Source of the DNA: Fibrobacter sp.
GTDB taxonomy: Bacteria; Fibrobacterota; Fibrobacteria; Fibrobacterales; Fibrobacteraceae
DNA length: 64,000 bases
Assembly: GCA_017503015.1 (NCBI GenBank)
Contig: JAFVTX010000031.1
Span: forward strand, 14,022-78,021
Reading direction: 5' to 3'
In this document: in pieces, positions 19,092 through 54,540 of the stretch
How the letters are laid out: every line of letters begins with the position of its first letter
Position numbering within the stretch: the stretch's first letter is position 1
Translations under genes and position numbers: made by a program
Notes under the pieces: model-generated
What the model was told of the DNA's origin: nothing
The model's input: the letters and a program-made list of their open reading frames with translations, nothing else
Database searches by the model: none

Positions 19092-19293
19092 AATAAACCT
19101 CTTTGAGGTAAATATATGCTTTTTCAGGAGAAATTTCTAGTAAAAAGTTTCAAATAAAAGCTCACAGCGAGTGTTTTACGCTTTTACGTGAGCTATTTCC
19201 CGCTTTTTTGTAAAGCGGGATTTACCTTGTACCGTAACGATGGTTCAACCCATATTTCCAAAGAGGCAAAAAACAGGGAACATCTTTACCTTT

Positions 19294-22063: not shown

Positions 22064-25000
22064 CTACCAGCAGCCAATAGAACACTTCATCACGCCATCA
22101 GTATCACAGGATGTTGTATATGTATTATTTAGATTCTGCCATGCAGCATAGTAATTCAAAGTGTTATTCTTATCTGCAGACTGTGTTCCTACGGTCTTAT
22201 AAAAAGCTCCTGAACAAGATATTACAACATTTCCTGAACAAGTCGCCTTTGCCTTTATATCCACACCACATGGGACATCAACATTCGATGATCCGTTCGT
22301 CAACGAGATTGGACCCAGGTAGCCTACAGTGCAATTTTCGGAGTCTGATCCTTTTGAATTGGTTAGTGTCAATGAATATGTGATATTACCAGCAGAAGTT
22401 GCTCCAGCATCAGTAAAAGAAATTTTTCCACTTCGCCATGTTCCACTAGCAATGGAAACACCCGACTTCTTGATGGAATAATTACATTCTTCCAATGCAA
22501 AACATGCCGGAGCAACAGGCGTTATTGAAGCACTCTTCCCAATACCAACCTGTACTGTAGGACACGAAGATATAGAGGGCGCAACTATAGGCGCACACGG
22601 ATTATACCCAGAAGAGCGAATAGAGACATACTTGTTCGCAATATTGAAATACCATCCACCATCCACTGCCGTATAATTTGCAAGGGCATTTGCACAATTT
22701 GTAGCATTATCATAACACAATTGTCCATTTGACGGAGTACTTCCATTAACTGTATATCCCTGATTTACATCAAGTCTTGTTGCAGATGCTACAAATACAC
22801 ATCCTGTAAACGGGTTTTGATCAATATTGCCTGTTACGATATTATTTTCGCACCCGCTTCCGCAGTAATCCGCACAATGGCATACACTAGTAGGTGACGC
22901 ATATGTCACATCGAAATTGCAGGACTTTGTCGTGGCGACATCGGGGTGCGAGACGGTCAGCGTGTAGGTAACCTTACCAGAACCATTGGCATCCGTGAAA
23001 GTATTTGTAGCGGAATAGCCGTCGTAACTGCTGACTTCGCCTCCATAAACGCTCGTTCCACCCTTGGTGATATTGTACGTGCAGTTCCCTCCGCAGCCAG
23101 TGTAGCTGGTATTGCTGCTGCCCGCTTTGGTCTTGACAGGCGTTATTGTGGTTCCGGCGGCGACAGGCGTGCTCGCTCCAGGATCCGTCCAAGAATCGCA
23201 ATCTAGGTTCAACGGGTAGTTTATGGTGTAGGAGCCCGAACAATCAACAGCACCTTCGGAATCTCGCGTTACCGATGCCGTATAGGTATGGGAACCCGCC
23301 TCGATTGCTCCGTTGCTAATAGAGAATCCGTATGTGTCAGAGTAGGTGCCGCTACCCACAGTTGAACCGTTCTCCTTGACGGTATAGGTACAGGTGCCTT
23401 CGGGGCAACTGACGCTTATCTTATTTGACGGAATTTCTGCCGAACCACCAAGATCCGCAGCAGAGGCATTTGTTGTTCCGCTCGTAATGCTACATGTCAC
23501 CGGATCCTTCACATGCTCAACAACTTTGAATGTCTGGTCGCAAGCATCTAGGCTCTTGATTTCGGTAGCCGAGCCCGCAGGGTTCCTTACCTCGTACTTG
23601 TACAGGTTATCGCTCACGGCCATCTGGGTCGGGCCCACAACATGGGGGTTCTTTGAACAGCCCGTGCTTGCGGCCTGGGCATTTGTACATTCGGAAATCT
23701 TCGTCCCGTTGAGGTAGACCTCGTAGGCGCATCCCTTGGTGGGGCAGCCGCTCAACTCGAAAGAATACTCAGGGTTCCCCTCACCGTACTCGATCTCGTT
23801 GGATGCGTTCATCTTATTGTGTTGCAGGGTCGCGTCGCCACAGGTAATGGAACCGATGGAACAGTCGTTGCCTGGGCAGGTACACGCCACCCACTCACTC
23901 GTGTAGTTGTTCAGTTCCGAATACACCTGGGCACTAAATGTGTAGGTCTTGCCGGCATTGGCGAATGCACCCGGGTCAGCGATTCCGTATTCAAGCCCAG
24001 CATAGTCGCGTTCTATGTCGGAGAGGTAACTTGCACCATTGACATCGGCCTTCAATCTGACTTTTGCCAGCTTATCTGCATTTTCGGGAACGCTGAGCGT
24101 CACCTTCCATTCCGTTTCACCGGCGCGAGTCACCGTACACCCGTCAAACCTGACGGAGTTCTTGCAGAGGGCCTCCGCCGATGTGATCGTCACGGGGTTG
24201 CTCCCGTTATTCCTAAAGGACATGGCGACAATGTTTTCCGGGTCAAACCCTGCGGCATTGTCTGCAAAGTCTTCGTAGGCCGAAGTGCTTGCCGCAACGC
24301 TGAAATGCTTGGTAATCGTCGAGCCAGAGCCGGTTATCCTTACATGGCGGCTTTCGTGGTCTTCGCCACCCCATGCGGCACTGTTACTGATGAGCCAAAC
24401 TTCAAGGTCGACATCGGCATAGTCGTTCGAAAGGGTGATAGCGAGATCCTTTATGCCTCGCAGGTCCTTTGCGGGGGTGAATGTCGGTGTATAGGTTTCG
24501 CCAGCTATAACGGACCTTTCGTTGGCAAGCAACGAAACATCGGCCTGGCACTCATTGAATTTTCCTGTCCAGAAGGGGCCGCAATGGGCCGGGTCTACCG
24601 TTGATTCCCAAGCCAGCACATCCGTCTTCGCGTACTTGCAGTTTGCAAGGGTGGCATAGGCGGTCTTTACATCTTGATCGTTGTTGTCCCTGTAGCCATG
24701 CGCACCGACTCCACTTTCGTCGAAATAGTAGCCGTTTTCACTATCTACAGTGGCATCGTTTGTGGCAGAGCCTGCCACATAGGAGTAGGACACAGAACAA
24801 TCCTTGCTGTCGAACCAGCCGGAATGGCCGACCCAGGGCCTCTGGTAGTCGTTGGACTGGCCAAGACCCGTACCGTAAGTGGGCACAACCCCGTCTACCG
24901 CCACGGCGGCAAAGGAGCACTTGACAGACGGAGGGCCGTCAAAGCATTCTGAACCGTAGTCGTCACTCTGCCAGCCGATACCGTATATTTTGAAATCGCG

Positions 25001-28000
25001 GTCGGCCAAGCTGAATCCCACATACTGATAGTTCATGATGGCGTGGTTGTTCCCTATAGAGGAGAGGATGAACACAGCCTTGTAATAATCAGATTCTTCG
25101 AAGACACTGCTGCTGTAGAAATTGTCAGTGATAGCCTTGATCTTGAGGGAGTCGCTTCCCTTGAGTGTGACAGAGAGCATGACCATACTGGAAGTAGTTA
25201 CGCTAGCCTTGGAATAGTTGTCTTTAGCGAGTTCAACTTCGGCACTGCAACTGCCGGCAGCATCAAGGCATACCCGTGCGGCAAGGTGGCCTGAAGTGTT
25301 CTCGTAAACATTCAATCTCCAGAAGCTGCTTCCATCGTCTTCGGCTCGGAACAGGAATCCCGAATTCTTGATTCTCGGAGAATCCTTTCCATAGCTAGAA
25401 GTTGCATGGGGCGGCTGGAACAGGGCCTTAAGTGTACCATGGATACCCGCATGTACGGTGCTCATGATTTTGACACCTTCCTTTGGGGCGTCCTTTGACG
25501 CCACAATGTACCCCTGGTAGGGGTCCCTCTCAACATAGGTCGTGTCGCTAATGTGTCCGCTGGCAAAGCTCCACTTGGCACTAGCTCCACTTCCGATGCA
25601 ATACGCGGTTTCCGTTTCTCCCGGCTTGCTACAGGCATGCCGGTCGTTGTGTTGAGCGGTTTTCCTGAATTCGTCAAAGAAGCAATGATTGTCATTCTCG
25701 CCGAAATGGGCGTAGATGATAGCGTTATTGTCCTTCACTGTGAATCCGTTTTTATCTTCGCTAGCACTGAACTTGGCACTGGAAATCGGATCGGTCGTGG
25801 GGCAGGTCATGCCTCCATTGTTATCGCAGGTCCAATAATTGAAATCCTTGTATAGATCCCTATCGATACTTATGAACACGGAATCTCCGTCAAAAACGGA
25901 AACAGGACAAACGACATCCTTGTTCACATAGTCGCAATCGGTTGTGTGACCTCCAGCAACGACCGTTACTTTGGGCGAGCCCACTATACTACCGGTAAAC
26001 TTAATACCAATCTTGCGGAGCTTCGCCTTAGCAGTAGCGCATAGGGAGATATTCTCGTTGACCTCAATTGGGGCCGATTTGGAAGCCTCGGGAATGATAA
26101 CCACGCACTCACCCGCATCATCGCCCTCCGTAAGGGAGAGTGTGCCTGTACCGCTGGTGACCACATTCCACAGGCTGTTCCTTGTTTCCGTAGAGTAACC
26201 CGGTGACCAGGAGGGTTTTACCCATTCCTTCGATGTGCTGTTGATGATTGGGCAATCGGGCCAAGCATTTATCATTGAATTTTCAGGACAAAGGTCGGCA
26301 TTCTCGCTCTTGTTACAGAAATCTTTGATGTCGTTTATATCGCTTACATTGCAACGCGTGAGACTTGCCGTGGAAGCCATGAGAAGCGTCGATGTCCATG
26401 GACTTGCCAACTGGTATGCATCTCCAGGTTGCAAGGTGAAGGTCACCGAGCCATTGGAGGCATCCCCAGCCGGCGTCAGAGTGAACAGCGTGGGAGTTTG
26501 GTGATTGACATCCACCCCAAAGTGGAATGTGTAAACATCATTCTCCGGCTCTACGTTGTCCTTCACTTGCAGAGTCCAGCCAGAAGGGACGGAAGATCTG
26601 TGCACCTTGACATTAATTTCGTTGGAGTGGGGTGGGAGATTTATCTTGACTTCGTGGGGGGCGCCTGCAGTGAGGTTGGCTGAAGGTTCCAAGAAGTTGA
26701 CTGGCGGGGCTGCACTCTGCGAGCCCTTGACCCAGACATAGAAGGGAACCGACTTGTAACCATCCGCAGAGGCGGTACAGGTATAAAGTCCCTCATCCAG
26801 TTTGGCATCCCCAGAAACCAGGTTGGAACTTATATTAAGCGAGGGGGAGCAACTATAACTAGCCGTTGCTTTGCTGACATTAGCTCCATTCAACGGAAGC
26901 ACATTAAAGTAGTCGATAAGTTTCCCGTAAGGATCCTTGGTCAGGTAAATGATACGGGGCAACACGATAAACGACTGGCTCAACGGGGAGATTCCATTGG
27001 CCGCATCAACAACCGGCACCATCTCGCTGGATTCGTATTGCGTTTCCAAAGTCACGCCTAACTGCGGAGCCATGGAAATGTAGTAGGGGTCCTTACCTGC
27101 GGACTTGAACACGGCCTGAGTATTTCCGCCTGCTGCTGCAGCGGCGGCGTTTACAGCGTCGGCACCACAGGGCTTACCCTTATCGCAGACAATACCGTTT
27201 TTACCCAAATCCTTCAACAATTCTCTGTCTGTAACAAACGCTGCATTTTCGAATCGATTGTTAGCACACTTTGCCGCCGGGAAATAGAGCGTTCCCGTAA
27301 GCTTGATTTTACTTCCCTCACTAAATCCCTGATCCGTGTCCATGAAGATGAACACATGCTTGATAGTTGCTGAAGTGGATAACTTATCCGCACCCTTCTT
27401 TAGGTAAAGCAAGACAAAAGAACCAGGATCAGAGGTGCCCATGATACCGTTGTCGGAGGCCGTTATCAAGGAGTTTTGTGCAGTAATTTGATCCTTGACG
27501 ATGATAACAAATTTTCCAACCAATGTTCCACTGATATTGTTCATCGCACCTGGTATTTTTACAACCAGATATTCCTTATTGTACAGCTTGTTGGCCCGAC
27601 TGGTAGAGTCTAGATAAAGCCTCGAATAACAAGCATTCAAGGAATCAACCAGCGTACTATTCCACCCCGTTGCAGTGGGGCAGGCATTCTTAGATTCTGC
27701 GAAAGATTCTAGCTCATCCAGGGGAATTTCTATGGGGTCATCCACAAAGTAATCTGCCCCGCATTTTTGTGTAGTTAGCTTATTTCCCCAAATTTTCCTA
27801 CATTTTTCTTCAACGGCATCCCCACAGGCAAAATCAGGCTTTGCAACCCAATCCGACTTGTTGTGCATGTTTCCGCCGATTTTGAACCAGGGGTTCACCC
27901 CGCAAGTCGGTCGGTTGGCGTCTCCGCTACTGCTCTTGCAGAAGGGGGATCCCGTAATTCTGGACTCTTCGTAATTGTAGAAATTATAGGTGGCGTTTGT

Positions 28001-29980
28001 GGCATCATAAAAATACTGTCCACCGACCTTGTACAGGCCTGCTGTTACGGCACTCTTGAAATAATTGTCAAACTTGTTATTGTCATTGGACCACATCGGT
28101 ATGGGGAACCAGCCACCACCCTTGTCGCCCTTCCACCCGCTAATGGGAGTTACATCGTACTTTCTCCAGTCGCTAGTGCTATAGGTCTTTTGTTCAAAAG
28201 CGACAAAGCCCGTTTGTGTTTTTGTGTTATCAAAAATGTAATATCTATCGCTGTTTACCGGTCGACCAGAAGGGAAAATACCAGAAACCGTGGCAGTCGT
28301 CCAATCTTCCCAGCCTTTAGAATAGTCGGTCCACTCGTTCAACCCTTCAGAACCATACGTATATGTGATGTATTCCCCATTGTCTTTAGCCAGCTCGCCG
28401 CAAACCAACGGCCCTTCTGTCGGGTTCTTCTTTATAAAATGACCGATATTACTCCCCGGATTCACCCTCTCCCAGTTGTCGGAATTATCACCATAAATTC
28501 TGAACCTCTTGTTTTCCGGACAGCGTTTTTTTCCGGTTTCTGTGTAGGTCTTGCTGGAAAGACTTGAATAATCTGACGACGCGCGGGCTGATTTGATATA
28601 GACCTCGGAGCCGGACGTACCCATAACTATCTGGTCGTAATTATCCGTATTTTCCTGGAAATTATTTATTCTGACTACGCTTTCCGTAGCGCATCCGATA
28701 AAGTCCTCATCTCCATAGTTACAGGATTTTGTACCCGTTAGCACGCATCCGATATTTTCTTTTTCGACCCAATACAGGTTATTACCGTTTGTCTTATAAT
28801 TCCTTGCACAAGCATAAGTCTTACCTCCATTATACCAGTCGTAATCCTTGCACTGGCATGAAGAATACGCCTGACATGTGCAACCACTTCTAGCTGTAGT
28901 CTTGGCCGTACTACCCCAACCCAGGGGTTGCTTTCCCGGCATCCATACATTGCCTTCCACAACAAAAGTACTATTGTTGTTAAAATGAAGAACTACCGCA
29001 CCGTCTTCATCAACACAGAGGTTTCCTTTTATCTTGGCTTTTTTTGACCTGTCATACGAAGACATGTATCCCTTTAAGGTAACATTGCTATCTATTAGCA
29101 AATTATAGTTAGCATCAGTAGTTATGCCTGTGGCCCCGAGGATGACATCTCCACTAAAGTAGGCGCTCCCCGACAGATCAAAGGAACTTGCGGTGGGGAT
29201 TCCTGCATCCTTACCCACAAACAAATCTTTGCCCTTAATACCGTCGTTTTGTGCAGAGAGATTCCCGCCAATACAGGTAAGCTCGCCCAGATTCATGCCG
29301 GATCCGCTCAAATTTGCGTTTCCCGTGACAATCCAGTTACTCGTTGCTGTCGGCGGGTTCACGCCTGTTTCTTCAGTACCCCAGTTTCCATTTACTACGG
29401 CCGACTCATAGTCCGTCCCCGTTCCCGAAACACCGCCTCCAAAGTATGAGTAGTCAAAGTCAGGAGGATCACCATCGTATTCCTCCTGTACCGTGGGTTT
29501 GTCTACCTGGTAAAGACCCGATATATTGAGAATGGCCACCTCGGTGTGCCTGGCTAATCCGTCCCGAGAAATGCCTTCAGAGAGAATTTTCACCTTGTAC
29601 AAGCCGTTTTGTGTAGTTACACCTGTGACCCACACATGGTGGTCCTGGGTCCCCCCCTGGACAAAGCTCCTTATCTGGTTATCCAGGTTGATTGGTTTCT
29701 TTTGGGACTTCGGTTCGTCAGTATTCAAATCATAGATGTACTGCCTAATAAGGGCTCCCACATCGTTGGCGTGGAATGTCATCCAAGCGCGAGTATTCTC
29801 GATACCCGCTACGGCACTCTGGTAGGCCTCCCGCTGCATCATACGGCTGGCACTGGAGTGGCCCTCGCTGGTAATCCACTTGTAGGTGGCGGTGGCCGCG
29901 ATGGTGGCCACCAGCATGAACATGAGAACGGTGACTAAGGAGACACCCGCTCTTTTCTTGTTTTTCATTCCAAATTTCAT
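22064..29980 (-). CDS. Giant PilX-N-terminal-domain protein (2638 aa), left cassette; candidate pilus-tip adhesin
   Basis: N-terminus KKRAGVSLVTVLMFMLVATIAATATYKWITSEGHSSASRMMQREAYQSAVAGIENTRAWM is PilX_N-like. Strong RBS AGGAGGGAATTATG. Very Cys-rich, with many Ig-like repeats. Paralog of 38082-45227. Confidence 0.8.
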   Translation of the reverse strand: MKFGMKNKKRAGVSLVTVLMFMLVATIAATATYKWITSEGHSSASRMMQREAYQSAVAGIENTRAWMTFHANDVGALIRQYIYDLNTDEPKSQKKPINLDNQIRSFVQGGTQDHHVWVTGVTTQNGLYKVKILSEGISRDGLARHTEVAILNISGLYQVDKPTVQEEYDGDPPDFDYSYFGGGVSGTGTDYESAVVNGNWGTEETGVNPPTATSNWIVTGNANLSGSGMNLGELTCIGGNLSAQNDGIKGKDLFVGKDAGIPTASSFDLSGSAYFSGDVILGATGITTDANYNLLIDSNVTLKGYMSSYDRSKKAKIKGNLCVDEDGAVVLHFNNNSTFVVEGNVWMPGKQPLGWGSTAKTTARSGCTCQAYSSCQCKDYDWYNGGKTYACARNYKTNGNNLYWVEKENIGCVLTGTKSCNYGDEDFIGCATESVVRINNFQENTDNYDQIVMGTSGSEVYIKSARASSDYSSLSSKTYTETGKKRCPENKRFRIYGDNSDNWERVNPGSNIGHFIKKNPTEGPLVCGELAKDNGEYITYTYGSEGLNEWTDYSKGWEDWTTATVSGIFPSGRPVNSDRYYIFDNTKTQTGFVAFEQKTYSTSDWRKYDVTPISGWKGDKGGGWFPIPMWSNDNNKFDNYFKSAVTAGLYKVGGQYFYDATNATYNFYNYEESRITGSPFCKSSSGDANRPTCGVNPWFKIGGNMHNKSDWVAKPDFACGDAVEEKCRKIWGNKLTTQKCGADYFVDDPIEIPLDELESFAESKNACPTATGWNSTLVDSLNACYSRLYLDSTSRANKLYNKEYLVVKIPGAMNNISGTLVGKFVIIVKDQITAQNSLITASDNGIMGTSDPGSFVLLYLKKGADKLSTSATIKHVFIFMDTDQGFSEGSKIKLTGTLYFPAAKCANNRFENAAFVTDRELLKDLGKNGIVCDKGKPCGADAVNAAAAAAGGNTQAVFKSAGKDPYYISMAPQLGVTLETQYESSEMVPVVDAANGISPLSQSFIVLPRIIYLTKDPYGKLIDYFNVLPLNGANVSKATASYSCSPSLNISSNLVSGDAKLDEGLYTCTASADGYKSVPFYVWVKGSQSAAPPVNFLEPSANLTAGAPHEVKINLPPHSNEINVKVHRSSVPSGWTLQVKDNVEPENDVYTFHFGVDVNHQTPTLFTLTPAGDASNGSVTFTLQPGDAYQLASPWTSTLLMASTASLTRCNVSDINDIKDFCNKSENADLCPENSMINAWPDCPIINSTSKEWVKPSWSPGYSTETRNSLWNVVTSGTGTLSLTEGDDAGECVVIIPEASKSAPIEVNENISLCATAKAKLRKIGIKFTGSIVGSPKVTVVAGGHTTDCDYVNKDVVCPVSVFDGDSVFISIDRDLYKDFNYWTCDNNGGMTCPTTDPISSAKFSASEDKNGFTVKDNNAIIYAHFGENDNHCFFDEFRKTAQHNDRHACSKPGETETAYCIGSGASAKWSFASGHISDTTYVERDPYQGYIVASKDAPKEGVKIMSTVHAGIHGTLKALFQPPHATSSYGKDSPRIKNSGFLFRAEDDGSSFWRLNVYENTSGHLAARVCLDAAGSCSAEVELAKDNYSKASVTTSSMVMLSVTLKGSDSLKIKAITDNFYSSSVFEESDYYKAVFILSSIGNNHAIMNYQYVGFSLADRDFKIYGIGWQSDDYGSECFDGPPSVKCSFAAVAVDGVVPTYGTGLGQSNDYQRPWVGHSGWFDSKDCSVSYSYVAGSATNDATVDSENGYYFDESGVGAHGYRDNNDQDVKTAYATLANCKYAKTDVLAWESTVDPAHCGPFWTGKFNECQADVSLLANERSVIAGETYTPTFTPAKDLRGIKDLAITLSNDYADVDLEVWLISNSAAWGGEDHESRHVRITGSGSTITKHFSVAASTSAYEDFADNAAGFDPENIVAMSFRNNGSNPVTITSAEALCKNSVRFDGCTVTRAGETEWKVTLSVPENADKLAKVRLKADVNGASYLSDIERDYAGLEYGIADPGAFANAGKTYTFSAQVYSELNNYTSEWVACTCPGNDCSIGSITCGDATLQHNKMNASNEIEYGEGNPEYSFELSGCPTKGCAYEVYLNGTKISECTNAQAASTGCSKNPHVVGPTQMAVSDNLYKYEVRNPAGSATEIKSLDACDQTFKVVEHVKDPVTCSITSGTTNASAADLGGSAEIPSNKISVSCPEGTCTYTVKENGSTVGSGTYSDTYGFSISNGAIEAGSHTYTASVTRDSEGAVDCSGSYTINYPLNLDCDSWTDPGASTPVAAGTTITPVKTKAGSSNTSYTGCGGNCTYNITKGGTSVYGGEVSSYDGYSATNTFTDANGSGKVTYTLTVSHPDVATTKSCNFDVTYASPTSVCHCADYCGSGCENNIVTGNIDQNPFTGCVFVASATRLDVNQGYTVNGSTPSNGQLCYDNATNCANALANYTAVDGGWYFNIANKYVSIRSSGYNPCAPIVAPSISSCPTVQVGIGKSASITPVAPACFALEECNYSIKKSGVSIASGTWRSGKISFTDAGATSAGNITYSLTLTNSKGSDSENCTVGYLGPISLTNGSSNVDVPCGVDIKAKATCSGNVVISCSGAFYKTVGTQSADKNNTLNYYAAWQNLNNTYTTSCDTDGVMKCSIGCW

Positions 29981-29989: not shown

Positions 29990-31366
29990 CTAGTCGCGGG
30001 GTCCGTTGCTTGGGATAGGTATAACTACAATAGTTTCGCCGGTTTCTCCCGCGCCTCGAGTAATCTGCAGCGACAGCTGCAAAGCCTTGATGTTCTGCTT
30101 GTCGGCCTTATGTGCTTCCGGGTTGTAAGCCGTTTCAAAACTGTAGTTCAAGCCGGGTACTTCCGTAACCTTCAGGTTCTTGATTTTCAGTATCGCCTGA
30201 GAAGCCTTCGGCGAATAGCAGGCAAAGGTAAATGCAATGCAGCCAGAAACATCTGTCGGTACGGTGAACCTCATATTACGCTTGCCTGTTCCTTGTGAGT
30301 TATACGGTGGAAAAAACAAAAAGTCGTCGAGCATTCTCTTTGGCGGGTCAGCGGCAGCGTCCATCAGGTAATTACCGTTAATATCCCTGAGCCCAACGGA
30401 CATGTGGTCCTCGCCAGGCACAAAGACCTGCAAGGGTATGTTGGGATCCGAGGACATGTTGGTAAAGGGTATTTCGAAGGATATCTCGTATGTGTGCCCC
30501 TTTTGGAATGTAATCAGACCCAGATTTTGGCAGTATTCCTTCCAAGATCCCGCATCGCCGCTTGATATAACAGCGAATGCCTGGTTCATGTTGTTATGGT
30601 CGGACTTGAGCTGTCCCTGGGCGTTGTCATAGTTGGTATAGAACTGCGAAAGCGTAATCTCTTCTCCAGCCCCCATTTCTTCTTTGCCATCGTTTTCCGA
30701 CTTGAAGTTGAAGAAATGCTCGTCGCCAGTCCTTGGTATCAGGCGGAACGAGTTCCCAGGAGTCGGGAAAATCTGCTCCTCGGCCCCGGTTACGGGGTTC
30801 GGAGCCACAACCTGGAACAACCCCACATTCGTTGAAATTTCCACAGCATCTGCGCGGGCCGCATCGGCGCTCCTTGACGGACACGCCTCTTCGGCCTCGC
30901 CCGAAACCGTACGACAACTGCGTTTAAGAACCTGGCCCTCATCAACAAACCAGCAAATCTCTTCCACAGCCTTGTAAAGGCCGTTGGCATCATAACGGGC
31001 CCGCCTAAAGTACAGAACACTCTGCCCATTAAGGGGAATCGTATCTATAAAGAATGAGGAAGAATCCCCGCTGGCCTTGTCCCAATAGACATCATCATAA
31101 ATACTGCTAAAGTTGTCACCAAAGGAACTTCCATCAGTGGCATCGCCCGCCTCTTTTGAACTCTTTGCCCCCATCTGAGATGCATCTGCTTTAAAAAGCG
31201 TTGCTACATTCTCGACCTCCTGGGTGGCCTTGAGGATATTCTGGGTGCGCACACGGAACTTGGTGGAGTCGCTGAAGGCGCGCCCCGCCACGATGACAAT
31301 AATGCCGAGGATGGCCATATAGACCATCAGTTCCATGAGGGTGAACCCGTTCTTGCGTCTAATCAT
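29990..31366 (-). CDS. PilW/GspJ-like minor pilin, left cassette
   Basis: Prepilin leader and cleavage/methylation motif MIRRKNG|FTLMELMVYMAILGIIVIVAG with Glu at +5. Position after the PilV-like gene, with an ATGA overlap. Confidence 0.75.
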   Translation of the reverse strand: MIRRKNGFTLMELMVYMAILGIIVIVAGRAFSDSTKFRVRTQNILKATQEVENVATLFKADASQMGAKSSKEAGDATDGSSFGDNFSSIYDDVYWDKASGDSSSFFIDTIPLNGQSVLYFRRARYDANGLYKAVEEICWFVDEGQVLKRSCRTVSGEAEEACPSRSADAARADAVEISTNVGLFQVVAPNPVTGAEEQIFPTPGNSFRLIPRTGDEHFFNFKSENDGKEEMGAGEEITLSQFYTNYDNAQGQLKSDHNNMNQAFAVISSGDAGSWKEYCQNLGLITFQKGHTYEISFEIPFTNMSSDPNIPLQVFVPGEDHMSVGLRDINGNYLMDAAADPPKRMLDDFLFFPPYNSQGTGKRNMRFTVPTDVSGCIAFTFACYSPKASQAILKIKNLKVTEVPGLNYSFETAYNPEAHKADKQNIKALQLSLQITRGAGETGETIVVIPIPSNGPRD

Positions 31367-31872
31367 CTGATTACCCCCGAAACTGAAATGGACTGGATGG
31401 AACCTTTGTAGGGCCAGCTAACCGTGACATTGACCCGCTTGGCGTAAACATGAGCAGCGCCATTTTCACCCACAAGAAGGCTACTCGAATTCGCCTCAAA
31501 TGTTTCGTCGCCGGAAACTTTTACATTGACTGTGTAAGTAATGCTTATGTTGTGTTGCACAATTCCTGGCTGACCTTTCCACTCCTGGACAATTTCTTGC
31601 GGAGGAAGGCTCCAAGTCCCGTCCTCGTTGTTGGTGAGGTGAGCGTCCGTAAAGCTCGCAAGCCCCTTGGAACTCAAATCGTCAATCACATTTTGGGCCA
31701 CCTCGGTAGCGCCATCGCGGCCACGGATACGCAACAAGGCGTCACGGTTGCCCGTCTGCAGGTTGCAGACCGCGGTGTACAGAAGTCCAAGCACCAGTGC
31801 CGCAACAATGACCTCCATGATGCCAAAACCGCGCTTGGGCTTGCACAAAACTGGTAAACGCTGAACGAACAT
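31363..31872 (-). CDS. PilV/GspI-like minor pilin, left cassette
   Basis: MFVQRLPVLCKPKRG|FGIMEVIVAALVLGLLY. The ATG at 31872 is chosen by comparison with the paralog; the ORF track start is 31911. Confidence 0.7.
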   Translation of the reverse strand: MFVQRLPVLCKPKRGFGIMEVIVAALVLGLLYTAVCNLQTGNRDALLRIRGRDGATEVAQNVIDDLSSKGLASFTDAHLTNNEDGTWSLPPQEIVQEWKGQPGIVQHNISITYTVNVKVSGDETFEANSSSLLVGENGAAHVYAKRVNVTVSWPYKGSIQSISVSGVIR

Positions 31873-31882: not shown

Positions 31883-32422
31883 CTATAGCTTCGACCAGTC
31901 ATCCGATCCACTCTTCAACTTGGATATAAACACATTTTTAGTCCTTTCTTTAACCGCGGCTGCATACAAGTCGCGGTCGCCATATTTCACCACTATGTAA
32001 CCCTCGTAAGGGGCGGTAGAAAGTCCTGGACGCGGGATAAAGGATGCCTGGGCTTCCGTCGAAGATACTAGGTTATAGCCATCAAGCCCACCAAAATCAC
32101 TAGTGATAATCGAGGACTGAGCATCAAGCACCAAACTATCGATAGGGGTGTCGAAATTGCCAGAGGCACACGACGCTCTGTAAGTTTTGAGCATTCTGTC
32201 CCCGTCATTTCGGACGCACAGAGAATCGTTAATCTGGCGAGCCTTGTTGGCAACCATTTCTAGGTAGGCCGCTACATTGAGAGCCGAATCCTTGGTTCGA
32301 GCATTAGCCACCGCACTTTGAAACCCGACCACACCCATGCCCGATAGGATGCCCATAATAGAAATCACCGCCAGTAACTCGACCAGCGTGTATCCCGCTT
32401 TTTTATGTGGTTTGCTCTGCAT
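31883..32422 (-). CDS. GspH/FimT-FimU-like minor pilin, left cassette
   Basis: MQSKPHKKAG|YTLVELLAVISIMGIL followed by ALNVAAYLEMVANKARQ (GspH/FimT-like helix). ATG at 32422; the ORF track start 32446 is a GTG inside the conserved leader. Confidence 0.7.
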   Translation of the reverse strand: MQSKPHKKAGYTLVELLAVISIMGILSGMGVVGFQSAVANARTKDSALNVAAYLEMVANKARQINDSLCVRNDGDRMLKTYRASCASGNFDTPIDSLVLDAQSSIITSDFGGLDGYNLVSSTEAQASFIPRPGLSTAPYEGYIVVKYGDRDLYAAAVKERTKNVFISKLKSGSDDWSKL

Positions 32423-32520
32423 ATACAGTTCCCTATTCAAAATCACCCTACGACCAAAAACTGGGTGGGCACACCTCCCTAAGCCCGGAAACCCAGTTTC
32501 CCTTCCTGCTTAAAATAGCT
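32413..32520. repeat. Inner inverted repeat, left copy (leader plus first 3 codons of the left cassette)
   Basis: The reverse complement matches 35554-35661 with 2 mismatches in 108 nt by hand alignment (90 nt uninterrupted). Identity stops abruptly at both ends. Confidence 0.9.
32456..32502 (-). promoter_or_regulatory. Identical leader hairpin and T-run in the left cassette 5' leader
   Basis: Mirror copy of 35572-35618 within the inner inverted repeat. Confidence 0.45.
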
Positions 32521-32528
32521 TTTTTTTT
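32520..32528. repeat. T9 (A9 on the coding strand) homopolymer at the inner edge of the left inverted repeat
   Basis: In cassette orientation: gcgAAAAAAAAAgcTATTTTAAGC. An A-tract directly upstream of a TAT-rich -10-like box. The right-hand copy lacks the tract (acatacaagcTATTTTAAGC). Confidence 0.8.
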
Positions 32529-32560
32529 CGCAAATAGTTCACATTTTTTTACAAAGGGGA

Positions 32561-32590
32561 CAAAAACCGCCTTTTCGAGGTAAAAAAGGC
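32561..32590 (-). terminator. Terminator after the central Rpn gene, insulating it from the left cassette
   Basis: Minus strand: gccttttttacctcgaaaaggc followed by ggtttttg. Confidence 0.6.
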
Positions 32591-32650
32591 AGTTTGTGAC
32601 GAGTGATGGGGTGGAATACGCTTGTTTAACGCAAGAAATGCGTCAAATGT

Positions 32651-33610
32651 TTATTTTAGCGCTTCTGCTTTGGCGATAATGCTCTTGGAAACGCCCTGGG
32701 ACCGGAGCAGTTCAATCACTTTGTCTATTCCTTTCTCCATTCCTTTCTCCATTCCTTTCTCCATTCCCTTTTTCATGCCTGCACGACGGCCTGCCCGCTC
32801 TGCGGCACGTCGAGCATCGCCGGCACTTACAAATCCCAGTCTTTGTCCTATGCTTTTCCATGCCATCTGCAATTCCTCCAGGCTTTCCTCGTCGATGAAC
32901 TCTCCTAAATATAAATTAATTTTGTCAAGAAAGACATTCTTGCCGTAATTCCCCAACATCCAAAGACGCTCTCCTATGGCTCGCGCCAAGTCTGACAGTC
33001 CTCGCTTATCAAAGGCATATTTCAGTATAAGCGCTCCAATCGCTGCTTCCACATTGTCGTCGGCGAGACACGATTCATCGTTCAGTTCAGACATGTTCAC
33101 CATCACGAGTTCAAACGGAAGATCTTTTCCCTGAAATTTTGCGCGATTCTTACGCTTGAAGGCTGCCACCGGGTCCCAGCTTCGTTTTCCGTTGTAGATT
33201 ATTATCGCTTTGGTCGGATACCAGCGGAATTCCGGGTCGTTTTTGTTTACCATTACATTGAACGCATATCGCCCCACCTGGTCGAGAAGTGCTCTGTCGG
33301 AAGCGGACTTGTGTTCTAACAGGATTCCCACGAACACATCTTTGCCCCTATACGCCTTCGCCGTGAACGCGAGATCCGATTCGCCCTTCTCGCCAACTTC
33401 GTTGTAAAAGCCGGGAAACAGCGTAAGTGTGTCGAGGTTCACGTCTTCGAGCATGGCATCTAGCTCCCTGTTGGCTTCACGTGCAAGGGTCAGGAGAGTC
33501 TTTGCGTTGGTCGGTTTGGAATAGATGTAACGGAAGAACCCGTCATGGTTCCTTCTTGTTGGATTGTTGCGTTTCTTCAAGTTTCTTGAATCCACCTGCT
33601 TGTTATTCAT
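32651..33610 (-). CDS. Rpn family recombination-promoting nuclease / putative transposase (YhgA-like)
   Basis: N-terminus ...RRNHDGFFRYIYSKPTNAKTLL resembles the RpnA/YhgA HDxxFK start. ILLEHKS nuclease block. C-terminal (GMEK)x3 repeat. Confidence 0.75.
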   Translation of the reverse strand: MNNKQVDSRNLKKRNNPTRRNHDGFFRYIYSKPTNAKTLLTLAREANRELDAMLEDVNLDTLTLFPGFYNEVGEKGESDLAFTAKAYRGKDVFVGILLEHKSASDRALLDQVGRYAFNVMVNKNDPEFRWYPTKAIIIYNGKRSWDPVAAFKRKNRAKFQGKDLPFELVMVNMSELNDESCLADDNVEAAIGALILKYAFDKRGLSDLARAIGERLWMLGNYGKNVFLDKINLYLGEFIDEESLEELQMAWKSIGQRLGFVSAGDARRAAERAGRRAGMKKGMEKGMEKGMEKGIDKVIELLRSQGVSKSIIAKAEALK

Positions 33611-34345: not shown

Positions 34346-35356
34346 GTGCACACCGCTTTGCCTATTATTTGGGGCATGGAGTGGAAACGTTTGTCGGTGG
34401 TACAGCGGCACAAGAGTCGCGGGATAAAGACCTGGTACCTCCGGGAAAATTCGGGCGGCGTGATTTCGTACAGGTCGCTGGGGACCACGTGCAAGAGGGT
34501 GGCGGAGGAGTGCCTGCAGAGGCTTCTGGTGCTGCGTTTCGCCATGCCCGGGGAGGTGCTGGAGGGGGTGCCCATGGAGGGTGCTATGCGGGAGTTTCTG
34601 GAGCGTCCGGGCCTGAAAATGGGCAGCGTGGAGCAGTACCGCCGTATTCTGGAGCATTTTTCGGGGTGGTGCAAGGCCCAGCGGGTCCATGACCTGCTTT
34701 CTGTGGACGAGAGGCTCGCGCGGAAGTACTATGCGTCGCTCCGGGGGAAGTCGGCGCGGCACAAGTGTCGCGTGTGCGGGTGCTTTTTGAGCTGGGTTTA
34801 CCGGGAAAATCGGGTGGAGCGGGCCCAGCCTTTCAAATTCGTGGATTTTCGGCGGGTGGCGAAGGTGGAAAGGGACGCCTGGAGTGTCGATGAGGTGGAG
34901 CGCATCGTGGAGACGGCGCCTACGGCCGAGATGCGGATGCTGTGGGCGCTGATGGCCTACGCGGGGCTTCGGGTCCACGAGGCGGCGGGGCTTAGGCAGG
35001 CCGACATTCTGGGGGACCGTTTCCAGGTTGTGGGAAAGGGGGACAAGTTCGCGGTGCTGCCCATAAACGGGCGGCTCCGGCGGGAACTGGAGCGGTTCGG
35101 AAGCCTGGGAGACGGGCTGAAAATCGACAAGCAGAAATCTATTCGTGAAATCAAGAAGGTCTGCGCGCGGCTGAAGATTGAAGGCTGGGCGTCGAACCAC
35201 AAGTTCCGTCACAGTTTCGCGACGAATCTCGCGGCCAGCGGGTGCCCTGTGGCGGTGGCCATGCGGCTGTTGCGGCACAGTTCCAGCGCCATGACGCTGG
35301 ACGTTTATACCCACATTGTGCCCGCCGATATGCGGGAGTGGGCGGAAAAAGTGTAA
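34346..35356 (+). CDS. Tyrosine site-specific recombinase (XerC/D-phage integrase family)
   Basis: Catalytic pattern AGLRVHEA (Arg), HKFRHSFAT (HxxR), LLRHSS and LDVYTHI (Tyr). Alternative ATG start at 34376. Markedly GC-rich relative to its neighbours. Confidence 0.85.
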   Translation: MHTALPIIWGMEWKRLSVVQRHKSRGIKTWYLRENSGGVISYRSLGTTCKRVAEECLQRLLVLRFAMPGEVLEGVPMEGAMREFLERPGLKMGSVEQYRRILEHFSGWCKAQRVHDLLSVDERLARKYYASLRGKSARHKCRVCGCFLSWVYRENRVERAQPFKFVDFRRVAKVERDAWSVDEVERIVETAPTAEMRMLWALMAYAGLRVHEAAGLRQADILGDRFQVVGKGDKFAVLPINGRLRRELERFGSLGDGLKIDKQKSIREIKKVCARLKIEGWASNHKFRHSFATNLAASGCPVAVAMRLLRHSSSAMTLDVYTHIVPADMREWAEKV

Positions 35357-35373: not shown

Positions 35374-35505
35374 GCGCAAAAATCATGCCAAATACAGGTG
35401 GGCGCGGACCTGGCTCCGGTTAGCTTCGATTAGCTCCGGGTGCAAAAATCGAGCCAAATGCGGATAAACGCGGGTAGGCTCAGACGCAAAAACTGTGCCC
35501 AAATA
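35374..35505 (+). promoter_or_regulatory. Three direct ~20-bp iterons between the recombinase gene and the right inverted repeat
   Basis: gcgcaaaaatcatgccaaata (35374), gtgcaaaaatcgagccaaatg (35440), acgcaaaaactgtgcccaaata (35484). GCAAAAA cores are 66 and 44 bp apart. A weaker copy gcaagaaatgcgtcaaatg lies near 32625-32645. Confidence 0.5.
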
Positions 35506-35553
35506 ATGCACACAACGCGCCAATTCCTTTATTCTAAAGGGAAAATACATACA

Positions 35554-35661
35554 AGCTATTTTAAGCTGGACGGGAAACTGGGTTTCCGGGCTTAGGGAGG
35601 TGTGCCCACCCAGTTTTTGGTCGTAGGGTGATTTTGAATAGGGAACTGTATATGCAGAGCA
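35554..35661. repeat. Inner inverted repeat, right copy (leader plus first 3 codons of the right cassette)
   Basis: agctattttaagctggacgggaaactgggtttccgggcttagggaggtgtgcccacccagtttttggtcgtagggtgattttgaatagggaactgtatatgcagagca. Confidence 0.9.
35572..35618 (+). promoter_or_regulatory. Leader hairpin followed by a T-run (possible attenuator) in the right cassette 5' leader
   Basis: gggaaactggg ... cccagttttt arms enclose an inner gggc/gccc stem. Competing small palindrome ggaaactgggtttcc (35573-35587). Confidence 0.45.
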
Positions 35662-36188
35662 CATCGCATAAAAAGGCAGGCTTTACGCTAGTGGAAATGC
35701 TGGCGGTTATTTCCATTATGGGTATCCTTGCTGGCATGGGGGTTGTCGGTTTCCAAACCGCCGTGGCGCACGCCCGCACTAAAGACGCCGCCCTCAATGT
35801 GGCTGCCTTCTTGGAGCGCACGGCCAACGAGGCCCGCAAGTTGAACACCTCCCTGTGTATCCGCAATGACGGCACCAGCAAGCTGGTGGTCTACAAGTCC
35901 GCCTGCAATGCCGGTACCATGGGCGATGCTGTGGACCAGCTGGTTCTGGAAAGTCAGGTTACAGTTGTTGTTAGCGATGTGGATGATGTTGGCGGTGGCG
36001 GAATCAACTTAATCACTTCGACAGACGCCAAAGCCACGTTCAAACCGCGCCTGGGGCTTTCATCGGCACCCTATGAAGGGTATGTAGTCGTGAAGTACGG
36101 CAGTGAACGCGGAGCGGCGGTCAAGGAAAAGACAAAGAATTCGTTCAAACCCAAGTGGAGCCCTTCGGGGTCCTGGTCGGATTTGTAG
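35652..36188 (+). CDS. GspH/FimT-FimU-like minor pilin, right cassette
   Basis: MQSTSHKKAG|FTLVEMLAVISIMGIL...ALNVAAFLERTANEARK. Paralog of 31883-32422. Confidence 0.7.
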   Translation: MQSTSHKKAGFTLVEMLAVISIMGILAGMGVVGFQTAVAHARTKDAALNVAAFLERTANEARKLNTSLCIRNDGTSKLVVYKSACNAGTMGDAVDQLVLESQVTVVVSDVDDVGGGGINLITSTDAKATFKPRLGLSSAPYEGYVVVKYGSERGAAVKEKTKNSFKPKWSPSGSWSDL

Positions 36189-36198: not shown

Positions 36199-36705
36199 AT
36201 GCACGTGCAGAATGACATAAAGCAATCCCGCAAGCGTGGCTTCGGCATCATGGAAGTCATGGTGGCGGCTTTGGTGCTTGGCCTCTTGTATGCTGCAATC
36301 TGCCAGCTACAGAAAGGTAACCGCGATGCGTTGCTGCGCATCCGTGGACGCGACGGCGCTACTGAGGTGGCTCAGAATGTGATTGACGATTTGAGCTCTA
36401 AGGGACTTGCAAGTTTTGCAGACATGAACCTCACCGAAAACGGTGACGGGACCTATAGCCTCGAGCCACAGACAATTGTCAGGGAGTGGAAAGGTCAACC
36501 GGGAACAGTACCTTATACCATAAGCATCGATTATACGGTCAATGTGAAAGTCTCTGGTGACGACGAATACAAGGCAAACACAGGGAGCCTTCTTTTGGGA
36601 GCAAACAGCGTCTCCCACATTTATGCCAAACGGGTGGACGTCACAGTTAGCTGGCTCTACAAGGGGTCCACCCAGTCCATCTCTGTCTCGGGGGTAATCA
36701 GATGA
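36199..36705 (+). CDS. PilV/GspI-like minor pilin, right cassette
   Basis: MHVQNDIKQSRKRG|FGIMEVMVAALVLGLLY. Closely similar to 31363-31872 along its whole length. Confidence 0.7.
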   Translation: MHVQNDIKQSRKRGFGIMEVMVAALVLGLLYAAICQLQKGNRDALLRIRGRDGATEVAQNVIDDLSSKGLASFADMNLTENGDGTYSLEPQTIVREWKGQPGTVPYTISIDYTVNVKVSGDDEYKANTGSLLLGANSVSHIYAKRVDVTVSWLYKGSTQSISVSGVIR

Positions 36706-38072
36706 TTAGACGAGAAAAAGCCGGTTTCACCCTCATGGAACTGATGGTCTACATGGCCATTTTGGGCATTATCGTTATTGTGGCTGGCCGTGCCTTTAGC
36801 GACTCCACTAAATTCCGCATACGTACCCAGAACATACTCAAAGCTACCCAGGAGGTTGAAAATGTGGCGACGCTGTTCAAGTCAGATGTGGCTCAGATGG
36901 GAGCGAAGAGCTCAAAAGAAGCAACCGTAGCTGGAGGAAATGACTCTTTTGAAAAAATCACAAACTGCACTTCCACTGCAGATTGCATTTACATGGACCC
37001 CAACAACGCTTCAGCGAACAATAAGGATTCTTCTTCTTTTGCAATCACAAGCAAGGAAAAGAATAAATATGACAGCATTGCGTTATTGCGCATTCGCTAC
37101 GATGAACAGGGAAAATACCAAGCGCTAGAAAAAGTGGAGTGGTACGTAGAGGATGAAGTTTTGAAACGAAGCTGCCGACTAATGCAAAAGATAAGCAGCC
37201 TTAATGTAACCGACGACCCATGTTCCAATGGGCCAAATTCAACACCTACACCTGTTGAAATGGCGACAGGTGTAAAAAAATTTACTGTCATTCCGGGATT
37301 GCCAAATATCCGCAGCAACGCTGCCGCAGGCTATACAGAAGAACAACTGTTTCCTCCTGGAGGGGGTGAATCCTTTAAATTTCTTTCTCGCTATGGTGAG
37401 ACAGACTATATCATACTTTCCATTCTGGATAATGGAACTTCGTCTACTTTGAGCGGATTCAAGCGAAATTACGACCTTACCGATGCGACAATAACCACAG
37501 AAAGTAAACAAATGAACCAGGTTTTTGCGGCAACAAACGAGGACTTGGAAGGCGATTGGAAGGATCGATGCTACAAGTTTAAGCTAGAGCCGGGAATAGA
37601 GTATGAAATCTCTTTTGATATGCCGTATCCTACATCCGCAAAAGACATGGCACAACTTTTCGTTCCTGGTCGAGACCACATGTCTGTGGGGTTCCGTGAC
37701 ATTAATGGGGATGCACCTGCAACAATTGACGACTTCCTCTTTTATCCGCCAACAAGCAACGAATCCGTTGGTAAGCGAGCTATGCGCTTTACAGTACCAG
37801 ATACACTAAAAAATCAGTGTTTGGCATTCACATTTTCAACTTACTCACCAAAAGCTGCAGAAGGGACAGTCACTATTTCAAATCTAAGGCTTAGGCGAGT
37901 TGCCAGTTCCACCTACAATTTTAATCCATCAGTTAGTTTGCCCATTAAGGACAAGAAAAATGTCAAGGCTTTGAAAATCAATCTGCAGATTGCTCGAGGC
38001 GACAAGAACCCCGGTGAAACAGGTGAAATTGAAGTGGTTATACCAACTCCCAGCAATGGCCCCAGGGACTAG
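36702..38072 (+). CDS. PilW/GspJ-like minor pilin, right cassette
   Basis: MIRREKAG|FTLMELMVYMAILGIIVIVAGRAFSDSTKF. N-terminal ~60 aa and the C-terminal ...VVIPTPSNGPRD are conserved with the left copy; the middle is diverged. Confidence 0.75.
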   Translation: MIRREKAGFTLMELMVYMAILGIIVIVAGRAFSDSTKFRIRTQNILKATQEVENVATLFKSDVAQMGAKSSKEATVAGGNDSFEKITNCTSTADCIYMDPNNASANNKDSSSFAITSKEKNKYDSIALLRIRYDEQGKYQALEKVEWYVEDEVLKRSCRLMQKISSLNVTDDPCSNGPNSTPTPVEMATGVKKFTVIPGLPNIRSNAAAGYTEEQLFPPGGGESFKFLSRYGETDYIILSILDNGTSSTLSGFKRNYDLTDATITTESKQMNQVFAATNEDLEGDWKDRCYKFKLEPGIEYEISFDMPYPTSAKDMAQLFVPGRDHMSVGFRDINGDAPATIDDFLFYPPTSNESVGKRAMRFTVPDTLKNQCLAFTFSTYSPKAAEGTVTISNLRLRRVASSTYNFNPSVSLPIKDKKNVKALKINLQIARGDKNPGETGEIEVVIPTPSNGPRD

Positions 38073-53504: not shown

Positions 53505-54540
53505 TGAGCACCTCCCACTGCGTACCTCCGCACTCCAGCACCACCCGGTCCCGGAGCACGGATTTCACCCGGTACGACTCCAGGGAATCTCCCGCCCTTT
53601 TCACGACCCGCGCACCGACAAACACACCCGAAAACAGCTTGTCCCCTACGATTCCCTGAACGGAAATAGACGGCCTTGGGCACTCGGTAGCCGCCTCTCT
53701 GGCTTTCGGGCGCGAGCTTTTTGCATTTTTTTGGATACGGGGTTCTTTTGATATGGGCCCTGTCGCGGGTGTGGATAGCACAGGGGCCTCCGGACCAGGC
53801 ATCGCCACGCCACCGACATCAAGATTTTCCCGCACAAGGATTCCCGCAAACATCATCAGGAAAAATAGAATTAAAGAAAGTCCCGCCGCCCTCCCCCGCT
53901 TCCTGGATTCAAGATGCAGGGCCTTCCAGAACGGATCCTTTGCAGCTTTTCCAAGCTGTACCACCCATACCGCCGCAGGGTCGCCGAAGTCCACTTCCAG
54001 GAATTCCAGCTCGCCCTGCCGGAAGTTTCCCGCCTTTGAAAACAGCGGGTCCTGCCGCAAGAATTCGTCCATCCGCTGCAGGCGACCGACAGCCATTTCC
54101 TTCCCGCAAGCACCCCCGTAGCCCCGTTCTTCGGACCAGTGGCAAAGCCGGCCTTCGTAAAAGACCAGCACGAACAAGATGCCGTTCACGATAGCGGCAT
54201 AGCGAAAGTTCTCGTAGCTCTCCCAGGATTCCATCTGGGCGTCGGCCCTGGCGTACAGGAACAGGGAGCGAGGCAGGGCGCGCCTCCCCCGCCAACAACG
54301 CTTGCCGAAACCTTTTTCGCCGTCGCTTGACCTAGGCGAGCCGAGGATTACCAGGTATCGGTGCCTGCGGCCCTCCGGCGAATTGAAGGAAACCATCTTC
54401 CAGAATTTCGGCGAGCCCTCCACTTCCGGAAAATCCCTTCGGAAATATTCCAGCAGGTTTTCGGGTGCAAGACTTTCTTCAAATCCCGTCACCAGCTCCC
54501 AGGTGCAAATCCGGGCGTCAACGCCCTGAACGCGGGCCAT
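53491..54540 (-). CDS. Bitopic membrane protein, possible pilus/T2SS alignment component (GspL/GspC/PilP-like C-terminus)
   Basis: Single TM GLSLILFFLMMFAGILV. C-terminal beta-rich region SVQGIVGDKLFSGVFVGARVVKRAGDSL...VVLECGG. Located immediately downstream of the secretin gene. Confidence 0.4.
   Translation of the reverse strand: MARVQGVDARICTWELVTGFEESLAPENLLEYFRRDFPEVEGSPKFWKMVSFNSPEGRRHRYLVILGSPRSSDGEKGFGKRCWRGRRALPRSLFLYARADAQMESWESYENFRYAAIVNGILFVLVFYEGRLCHWSEERGYGGACGKEMAVGRLQRMDEFLRQDPLFSKAGNFRQGELEFLEVDFGDPAAVWVVQLGKAAKDPFWKALHLESRKRGRAAGLSLILFFLMMFAGILVRENLDVGGVAMPGPEAPVLSTPATGPISKEPRIQKNAKSSRPKAREAATECPRPSISVQGIVGDKLFSGVFVGARVVKRAGDSLESYRVKSVLRDRVVLECGGTQWEVLNGAP

Follow-up and report, generated by a model that had tools for sequence, protein, structure and literature searches.

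The stretch of Fibrobacter sp. DNA analysed here (contig JAFVTX010000031.1, positions 14,022 to 78,021; 64,000 nucleotides (nt), hereafter the window) carries two four-gene cassettes, A and B, transcribed away from each other, in each of which genes for a GspH/FimT-like, a PilV/GspI-like and a PilW/GspJ-like prepilin (H, I and J) precede a final gene encoding a giant protein with a pilin-type N-terminus (giants A and B; Table 1). Each cassette probably encodes the priming or tip complex of a type IVa-like pilus, in which the apical subunit, of PilK/PilX/GspK type, bears an adhesin of its own of 1,800-2,900 residues. A preliminary description of this DNA, made from the letters and their open reading frames (ORFs), had proposed such a fusion of a PilX-like minor pilin and an adhesin-sized body, and this interpretation is supported by N-terminal signal, synteny and architecture. 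Both ORFs have the coordinates and lengths given there (2,638 and 2,381 amino acids, aa), and giants end both cassettes of the window as well as those of the related loci. As computed from the translations both proteins are acidic, with masses of 283 kDa (giant A) and 256 kDa (giant B) against the roughly 250 kDa given earlier.

The covalent fusion claimed in the preliminary description is well supported. A scan of one genome per species yielded 115 relatives, and in all 65 complete genomic copies (65/65) the pilin module is fused, with lengths of 1,935-2,893 aa (median 2,391). When 1.84 billion cluster representatives were searched exhaustively with the N-terminal profile (HMMER), about 320 clusters (50% identity) were returned, 295 of them below E 1e-10, and the best 150 are almost all 1,650-3,081 aa long. 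With 65 complete homologous ORFs and 320 clusters, nearly all of them giants, the fusion is thus real and not a chance ORF. The module was never seen on a short or a different protein, short matches being contig-end fragments or interrupted genes. Two candidates for a natural split, PilX followed by a separate gene of 2,117 aa or of 1,764+ aa, were rejected, as the junctions read as a frameshift in locus L001 (L001:3927-5200) and an in-frame TAA stop in locus L002 (L002:3355-4700), each inside a single continuous frame; a homopolymer tract is absent at both sites, and both loci are interrupted or mis-assembled metagenome copies (assembly errors or pseudogenes).

Pilin module and cassette context

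Giant A begins MKFGMKNKKRAG|VSLVTVLMFMLVATIAATATYKW...REAYQSAVAGIEN and giant B begins ...TKAG|VSLVTVLLFMLVATIAATATYKW...REAYQSAIAGIEN; in both, a short basic leader with a terminal Gly is followed by VSLVTVL(M/L)FMLVATIAATATYKW and then by REAYQSA(V/I)AGIEN. Among the relatives, Gly-1 precedes the hydrophobic helix in 71 of 72; position +5 holds T, V or A, in no case Glu. Absence of Glu5 is a hallmark that sets GspK/PilX-type subunits apart from other pilins. The N_methyl motif (IPR012902) is unmatched in the window giants and in 18 full-length family members, which is expected because K-type subunits have no Glu5. The Pfam domain PilX_N (PF14341) aligned over profile positions 1-50/51 with residues 11-60 of giant A and 14-63 of giant B. 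It matches 18 of 21 N-terminal modules from relatives (best E 4.6e-7) and 11 of 18 full-length relatives, a precomputed PF14341 match is present on many database relatives, and one homolog carries the NCBI name "pilus assembly PilX N-terminal domain-containing protein". Residues 1-166 were modelled with AlphaFold on an alignment of 21 sequences (predicted local distance difference test, pLDDT, 85); the model has helices between residues 15 and 82 and, at 113-153, an antiparallel sheet of three strands, which as modelled amounts to a minimal topology of pilin type. Conservation within the giant protein is highest in the 165-aa module, and the modules of A and B are 62.5% identical.

The three upstream proteins carry the canonical prepilin signal G|F/Y-x-x-x-E, and N_methyl is found in all 42 orthologs (42/42) of the J protein; the start of the cassette A I gene was re-assigned from sequence. 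A carbohydrate-binding domain, CBM_4_9, in the J protein was dropped as a family feature, only 3 of 42 orthologs showing a hint of it. In the window the gap between the J gene and the giant gene is about 10 nt, and in every related locus examined the giant gene lies directly 3' of a J-type prepilin gene. Where upstream genes occur among the 98 cassettes seen, they keep the order H-I-J-giant; in a minority of loci J and giant alone are present, in tandem or divergent arrays. Such J-plus-giant arrays are tandem in four loci (L024, L030, L052, L055) and divergent in three (L054, L064, L067), with up to three pairs per 20 kb. Identity between cassettes A and B falls from 78% in the I protein through 62% in the N-terminal module, 60% in H and 47% in J to 29% in the core and 22% in the C-terminus of the giant, a gradient that would be expected if the assembly interface is conserved while the exposed part diversifies.

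Table 1. Features of the two cassettes, the spacer between them and the nearby pilus machinery (positions of the window)
Feature	Position	Strand	Description
Variable C-terminal part of giant A, aa 1981-2638	22067..24040	(-)	four degenerate Ig-like modules (C-x(2-6)-C-x-Y-x-[IV]); ends ...KCSIGCW
Conserved core of giant A, aa 780-1980	24041..27643	(-)	all-beta beta-sandwich/jelly-roll chain; hidden Markov model (HMM), alignment, AlphaFold, Foldseek
Variable region of giant A, aa 166-779	27644..29485	(-)	starts with G-N/G-D beta-solenoid-like repeats; low conservation
Pilin module of giant A, aa 1-165	29486..29980	(-)	leader KKRAG|V, Glu5-less hydrophobic helix, small beta-sheet, invariant GLYxV at end; alignments, AlphaFold
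Giant A, PilX/PilK-type minor pilin	22064..29980	(-)	2,638 aa, 283 kDa, isoelectric point 5.0; ORF and translation
PilW/GspJ-like minor pilin, cassette A	29990..31366	(-)	458 aa, KNG|FTLMEL; N_methyl E 1e-7, weak GspJ and other pilin matches
PilV/GspI-like minor pilin, cassette A	31363..31872	(-)	169 aa from likely ATG, KRG|FGIMEV; weak N_methyl and PilV matches
GspH/FimT-like minor pilin, cassette A	31883..32422	(-)	179 aa from likely ATG, KKAG|YTLVEL; N_methyl, GspH E 8e-9, PRK10506 E 4.5e-10
Left inverted repeat	32413..32521	.	109 nt (14 + 90 nt exact); covers leader and first codons of H gene (A)
YhgA/Rpn-type PD-(D/E)XK transposase-like gene	32651..33610	(-)	Transposase_31 E 1.5e-14; weak RpnA match
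Tyrosine recombinase (Phage_integrase, Xer-like)	34346..35356	(+)	just upstream of and co-directional with cassette B; Pfam E 7e-18, NCBIfam Xer-type
Conserved non-coding "Y" element	35478..35551	(+)	~75 nt, between recombinase and leader; alignment; once per locus, recombinase side
Right inverted repeat/leader	35552..35660	.	as RNA, long hairpin then U-run
GspH/FimT-like minor pilin, cassette B	35652..36188	(+)	60% identical to A copy
PilV/GspI-like minor pilin, cassette B	36199..36705	(+)	78% identical to A copy
PilW/GspJ-like minor pilin, cassette B	36702..38072	(+)	456 aa, 47% identical to A copy
Giant B, PilX/PilK-type minor pilin	38082..45227	(+)	2,381 aa, 256 kDa; module 38082-38561, core ~39903-43400
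Secretin, best match PilQ (below cut-off)	54540..56249	(-)	Secretin/STN/Secretin_N/N0 domains; TIGR02515 E 5e-58
PilT/PilU-family type IVa pilus retraction ATPase	56410..57510	(-)	366 aa; TIGR01420 462 bits vs cut-off 319; T2SSE

From these features we infer the location of the giant at the tip, its cleavage by prepilin peptidase, complex formation, passage through the secretin and the nature of its ligand. The N-terminal hydrophobic helix would insert the giant into the inner membrane, where prepilin peptidase would cleave after Gly-1, and the pilin module (helix plus three strands) would join the I and J subunits, with the H subunit connecting the tip complex to the major pilin. Polymerisation of the major pilin would then drive the complex, giant foremost, through the PilQ secretin. 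At the distal tip the body, whose beta-sandwich and lectin-like jelly-roll domains are strung into an elongated chain and stabilised by conserved Cys residues, would bind a surface ligand, most plausibly a plant cell-wall polysaccharide, and retraction by PilT would draw the cell onto its substrate. The giant would in this way combine the jobs that are split between PilX and PilY1 in Pseudomonas and Myxococcus, and conserved modules with divergent bodies would supply alternative tips.

Genes for a PilT/PilU ATPase and a PilQ-like secretin are located 9-12 kb from cassette B, and their presence in the window speaks more for a retractile pilus of type IVa than for a type II secretion pseudopilus. 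In the latter case a short, H-I-J-K-tipped piston would push the giant through the secretin and leave it displayed or anchored at the surface, and it would not be a pilus-tip adhesin. The H-I-J-K order is equally that of the type II secretion system (E. coli gspH-I-J-K), the best named matches of the first cassette gene are GspH and PRK10506, the leader of the giants resembles that of GspK (RG|VAL..VL), and the genome paper on strain S85 reported a type II pathway and doubted the completeness of the pilus gene set (PMC3079729). However, the nearby ATPase scores above the PilT/PilU family cut-off and the secretin matches PilQ best, a later survey lists PilB, PilC, PilM-Q and PilT for all Fibrobacteres genomes (PMC4704652), and GspC, GspL and GspM were not found among the window ORFs scanned. 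A pseudopilus of this kind is thus unlikely. The ATPase and secretin genes are part of an apparent operon (window 52626-60165 (-), 7-15 kb from cassette B), which also contains genes for an 883-aa TPR protein and two ORFs without a family (349 and 292 aa).

Several results weigh against placing the giants at the tip of a pilus. The PilX_N scores of the two window proteins (13.8 and 18.3 bits) are below the gathering score of 25.5, sequence similarity to PilX or GspK could not be detected in residues 60-165, and a Foldseek search with the model of the N-terminal module matched no pilin structure (best E 0.18). Profile searches of PDB sequences with the module and with the whole family gave nothing significant, and an hhalign comparison with GspK of E. 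coli covered leader and helix alone (28 residues, probability 6%; RG|VALLIVL vs AG|VSLVTVL). Given these failed fold and profile searches, homology of the whole 165-aa module is unsupported, and support for homology to PilX/GspK comes from the first ~50 residues and the gene context. The earlier statement that the first ~165 aa look like PilX accordingly stands for the ~50 residues which align with PilX_N and not for residues 60-165; likewise, the HMMER/Pfam check proposed at that time yields a full-length PilX_N alignment, clearer in the relatives, that falls below the Pfam threshold in the window proteins. No carbohydrate-binding family was significant in the window giants or in 18 family members (Pfam), and no prepilin peptidase, major pilin or PilB/PilC was found in the Pfam and NCBIfam scans of part of the window ORFs. 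Furthermore, a multi-domain protein of 256-283 kDa would have to traverse the secretin, which is a difficulty, and a tip protein of such size is unrecorded in the pilus literature compared (PilY1, MshQ of ~1,200 aa, CpaL of ~600 aa).

The short, sub-threshold PilX_N match, the fold search without a pilin and the poor alignment with GspK would also fit an N-terminal segment that merely serves an unrelated giant surface protein as signal anchor or Sec signal, in which case its place after the pilin genes would be mechanistically meaningless. This is most improbable, as the giant gene directly follows a J gene throughout the related loci examined, at a distance of about 10 nt in the window, as Gly-1 is nearly invariant, and as the module is the best conserved part of the protein and is confined to giants. 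A K-type apical subunit that carries its own adhesin thus remains the preferred reading of the cassettes.

Architecture of the giant bodies

From an alignment of the family and an HMM for its middle part, the giants were divided into four regions (Table 1). In the variable region that follows the pilin module, the similarity of the two paralogs ends at about aa 355, and in giant A this region gave only sub-threshold hints of the Bactofilin and gamma-carbonic-anhydrase beta-helices. The conserved core comprises about 1,170 positions with many invariant Cys and Trp residues, is matched over its full length by the HMM in every complete giant, and contains the conserved motif D-YYIS-APQL-V-LESQY (core residues ~185-210). 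An AlphaFold model of the core, resting on a shallow alignment of 20 sequences, is almost wholly beta, with a mean pLDDT of 71 and with most domains at 70-88. Foldseek matched this model to the long chains of beta-sandwich, Ig-like domains of alpha-2-macroglobulins, complement, mastigoneme, the Gram-positive pilin BcpA, LigA, the S-layer protein SbsC and a cellulosomal scaffoldin, and further to laminin LG4-5 and a sialidase with a galactose-binding module (carbohydrate-binding module, CBM). As predicted from the model, the body is of adhesin-stalk architecture with lectin-like domains, unlike PilY1. The PilY1/PilC family of Pfam has no match in either giant at E<=1, in 18 family members at E<=0.1, or in the scanned ORFs of the window (those of the cassettes and 30 other, larger ones), and no beta-propeller is among the top Foldseek matches of the core, the only part of the body modelled. 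The earlier observation that a PilY1-like gene is absent thus holds for the ORFs scanned in this one window of the genome.

Searches of Pfam, NCBIfam and PDB sequences with the giants returned nothing that explains the body, PilX_N being the only domain recognised. Matches to Filamin, CBM64, PKD and Big are isolated and concern single family members, and in NCBIfam one giant has no family at E<=1 and the other a chance OsmE match only. The Cys content is elevated, not extreme, at 3.1% (82 residues in A and 74 in B), and BLAST self-comparison detected no internal repeats; the terms extremely Cys-rich and repeat-rich in the preliminary description were therefore overstated, and only one degenerate motif recurs. 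This motif, C-x(2-6)-C-x-Y-x-[IV], has four copies in the C-terminal part of giant A, where 0.09 are expected from shuffled sequences, and a single copy in giant B (residue 967). The giants vary at the C-terminus, where in 38 of 65 a strand-like C-x-x-x-W pattern leads up to a final Trp or Tyr.

The D-YYIS-APQL-V-LESQY segment is modelled at very low confidence, and may thus need a partner. It lies within a low-complexity Ala/Gly/Ser linker (core residues 155-221), also of very low model confidence, that separates parts of the body. Such a linker would suit a giant that is a cargo delivered by the pilus or pseudopilus, its body being cut from the pilin module and then released or passed to the outer membrane or to vesicles, and expression profiling in sheep indicated that F. 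succinogenes relies heavily on outer-membrane vesicles (PMC8092306). However, no protease site or sorting domain was found, the NCBIfam models for fibro-slime (TIGR02148), Fib_succ_major (TIGR02145) and the C-terminal sorting domain of the type IX secretion system being unmatched in the giants, and the disordered stretch holds one of the best conserved motifs of the family, which points to a role in interaction and not to a linker that can be discarded. Delivery as a cleaved cargo is very unlikely.

Recombinase, leaders and family distribution

The 3.2 kb between the two cassettes hold a YhgA/Rpn-like gene and a tyrosine recombinase gene (Table 1). In the related loci the recombinase gene is always immediately upstream of, and co-directional with, one cassette, and divergent cassette pairs flank it in at least 9 loci; the recombinase gene and the Y element stand beside a cassette, often between two head-to-head ones, in the window (32413-35660) and in loci L004-L006, L008, L015, L036, L060 and L076-L084. 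The recombinase is 98-99% identical in 8 metagenome contigs, in which the proteins of the adjacent cassettes are only 36-65% identical to those of the window. The leaders are perfect inverted repeats of 90-110 nt starting AAGCTATTTTA in the window, L005 and L076; such long perfect repeats occur in 3 of the 9 divergent loci and are absent from the other six. Only one pair was found in which the same cassette type is distal to the recombinase in one locus and proximal in the other (L005 vs L077, J protein 87% identical). An inversion of the promoter module or an exchange of cassettes by the recombinase is plausible from this arrangement of sequences.

In its furthest extension, which we consider rather doubtful, this would make the giants the largest pilins known and a set of switchable, alternative tips of 250-300 kDa, with a PilK fold completed in cis by a far-downstream strand and a recombinase that, with the Y element next to it, inverts DNA between the leader repeats. 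The cis strand would be the D-YYIS-APQL-V-LESQY segment or the aromatic-ended C-terminus, and inversion would let one promoter module drive either of the head-to-head cassettes, each cell carrying one type of tip.

As RNA, the shared leader (35552-35660, 32413-32521) is predicted to form a long hairpin, GGGAAACUGGGU...ACCCAGUUU, and then a U-run (-34.3 kcal/mol, z -1.8), and could act as an attenuator or another element of the 5' untranslated region; Rfam families are unmatched in the window and at the conserved leader. A second hairpin, GCCTTTT...AAAAGGC followed by GGTTTTTG (32561-32592 (-)), was seen by eye between the YhgA-like gene and the cassette A leader, facing cassette A, and was not reported by a consensus terminator scan.

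Genes of the transposase-like PD-(D/E)XK type (PDDEXK_2) recur beside the 3' ends of the giant genes, in the window at 16669-17688(-), 20818-21756(+) and 45464-46180(-), and also lie beside giants in many other loci (L005, L007, L013, L075 and others). Large surface-type genes adjoin cassette A (window 10018-20619 (-)), encoding a 1,485-aa PA14 protein and two PKD-domain proteins (611 and 441 aa). The G+C content of the giant B gene (window 38001-44000) is 0.43-0.46, far below the 0.55-0.58 of the flank at 46001-56000, and that of the giant A gene is 0.48-0.52.

The family of giants is confined to the Fibrobacteraceae. The best 80 of the 115 relatives represent 72 loci, nearly all from Fibrobacter, Fibrobacteraceae or Hallerella, including F. 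intestinalis ATCC 43854. Typical Fibrobacter cassettes also appear in bins of other taxa (L019, L020, L022, L025, L028, L039, L051, L056), labelled Alistipes, Sodaliphilus, Eggerthellaceae, Senegalimassilia, Oscillospiraceae, Methanomethylophilaceae and Bacteroidales; these are probably mis-binned contigs, and the few relatives named Alistipes, Sodaliphilus, Eggerthellaceae or a methanogen come from one binning study and look like bin contamination. The nearest relative of cassette A is in Fibrobacter sp. UBA4375 (80% in the N-terminal module) and that of cassette B in a metagenome-assembled genome of F. succinogenes (96% DNA identity). Genomes hold several divergent cassettes, in which the pilin modules are conserved and the bodies diverge.

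Comparison with known systems

It is not yet settled how the rumen bacterium Fibrobacter, a main cellulose degrader there, attaches to its substrate, and pilins have been implicated in its adhesion only through adhesion-defective mutants and proteomics (PMC3079729, PMC6851124). A literature search returned no paper with both Fibrobacter and PilX and none describing the giant family, the PilX_N domain of which is already flagged by automatic annotation. Conserved, multi-copy PilK-type pilins with some 2,000 residues of adhesin-like domains are defined candidates for gripping surfaces. They extend the ideas of the modular pilin and of PilK with an insertion three- to fivefold in size, raise the question of how so large a protein is primed and passed through the secretin, and offer a natural test of the model of beta-strand licensing in cis or in trans. 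The conserved link to a recombinase in addition suggests a programmed variation of pilus tips.

Multi-copy, four-gene cassettes of prepilin-type proteins plus one large protein (A) are known from the Verrucomicrobia as Verru_Chthon (TIGR02596-TIGR02600). The H and J genes weakly match cassette proteins D and C of this system, in the N-terminal pilin helix only, whereas the giants match no NCBIfam model of the cassette and protein A (TIGR02600) is unmatched. With PilX, PilK and GspK the giants share the last position in an H-I-J-K operon, a basic leader ending in Gly, a helix without Glu5, an alignment over the full length of PilX_N and a predicted module of helix plus sheet. They differ in being 10-15 times longer (1,935-3,081 aa vs about 200-330 aa), in lacking similarity past ~50 residues as well as the alpha-domain of GspK, and, as far as the two window proteins are concerned, in staying under the Pfam threshold.

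The sheet of PilK is completed by a final strand, provided in trans by PilC/PilY1 or MshQ or in cis (PMC13533445). Like PilY1/PilC and MshQ, the giants occupy the slot right after the minor pilins, are of adhesin size and have a presumed role in adhesion at the tip; unlike PilY1/PilC, they have no PilY1 beta-propeller (PF05567 / IPR008707) and are attached covalently through their own pilin module, not through a C-terminal strand given in trans. A strand in cis is found in PilK homologs with large insertions, such as CpaL/TadG (~600 aa), ComZ of Thermus and that of the V. cholerae competence pilus (Ellison et al. 2026, PMC13533445), and these occur in systems without a tip adhesin of PilY1 type (PMC13533445). 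The giants, which would be an extreme case, resemble them in combining a minor-pilin-like N-terminal module with a large additional region, presumed to confer the function of the tip in systems without PilY1, and differ in the size of this region, which is 3-5 times larger and consists of many beta-sandwich domains.

In modular pilins, finally, a pilin module carries adhesion modules at the tip, as in PilB and PilC of S. sanguinis and CofB of enterotoxigenic E. coli (Raynaud et al. 2021, PMC8179133). These pilins commonly carry modules of lectin type (concanavalin-like), and the most extreme multi-domain example highlighted has 860 residues, in a survey keyed on the N_methyl motif IPR012902 (PMC8179133). 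The giants, with a 165-aa module and 1,800-2,900 aa of beta-rich non-pilin domains, follow the same plan; in contrast to the pilins surveyed they lack IPR012902, reach 2-3.5 times the 860 residues, and represent the K-type subunit of a four-pilin cassette.

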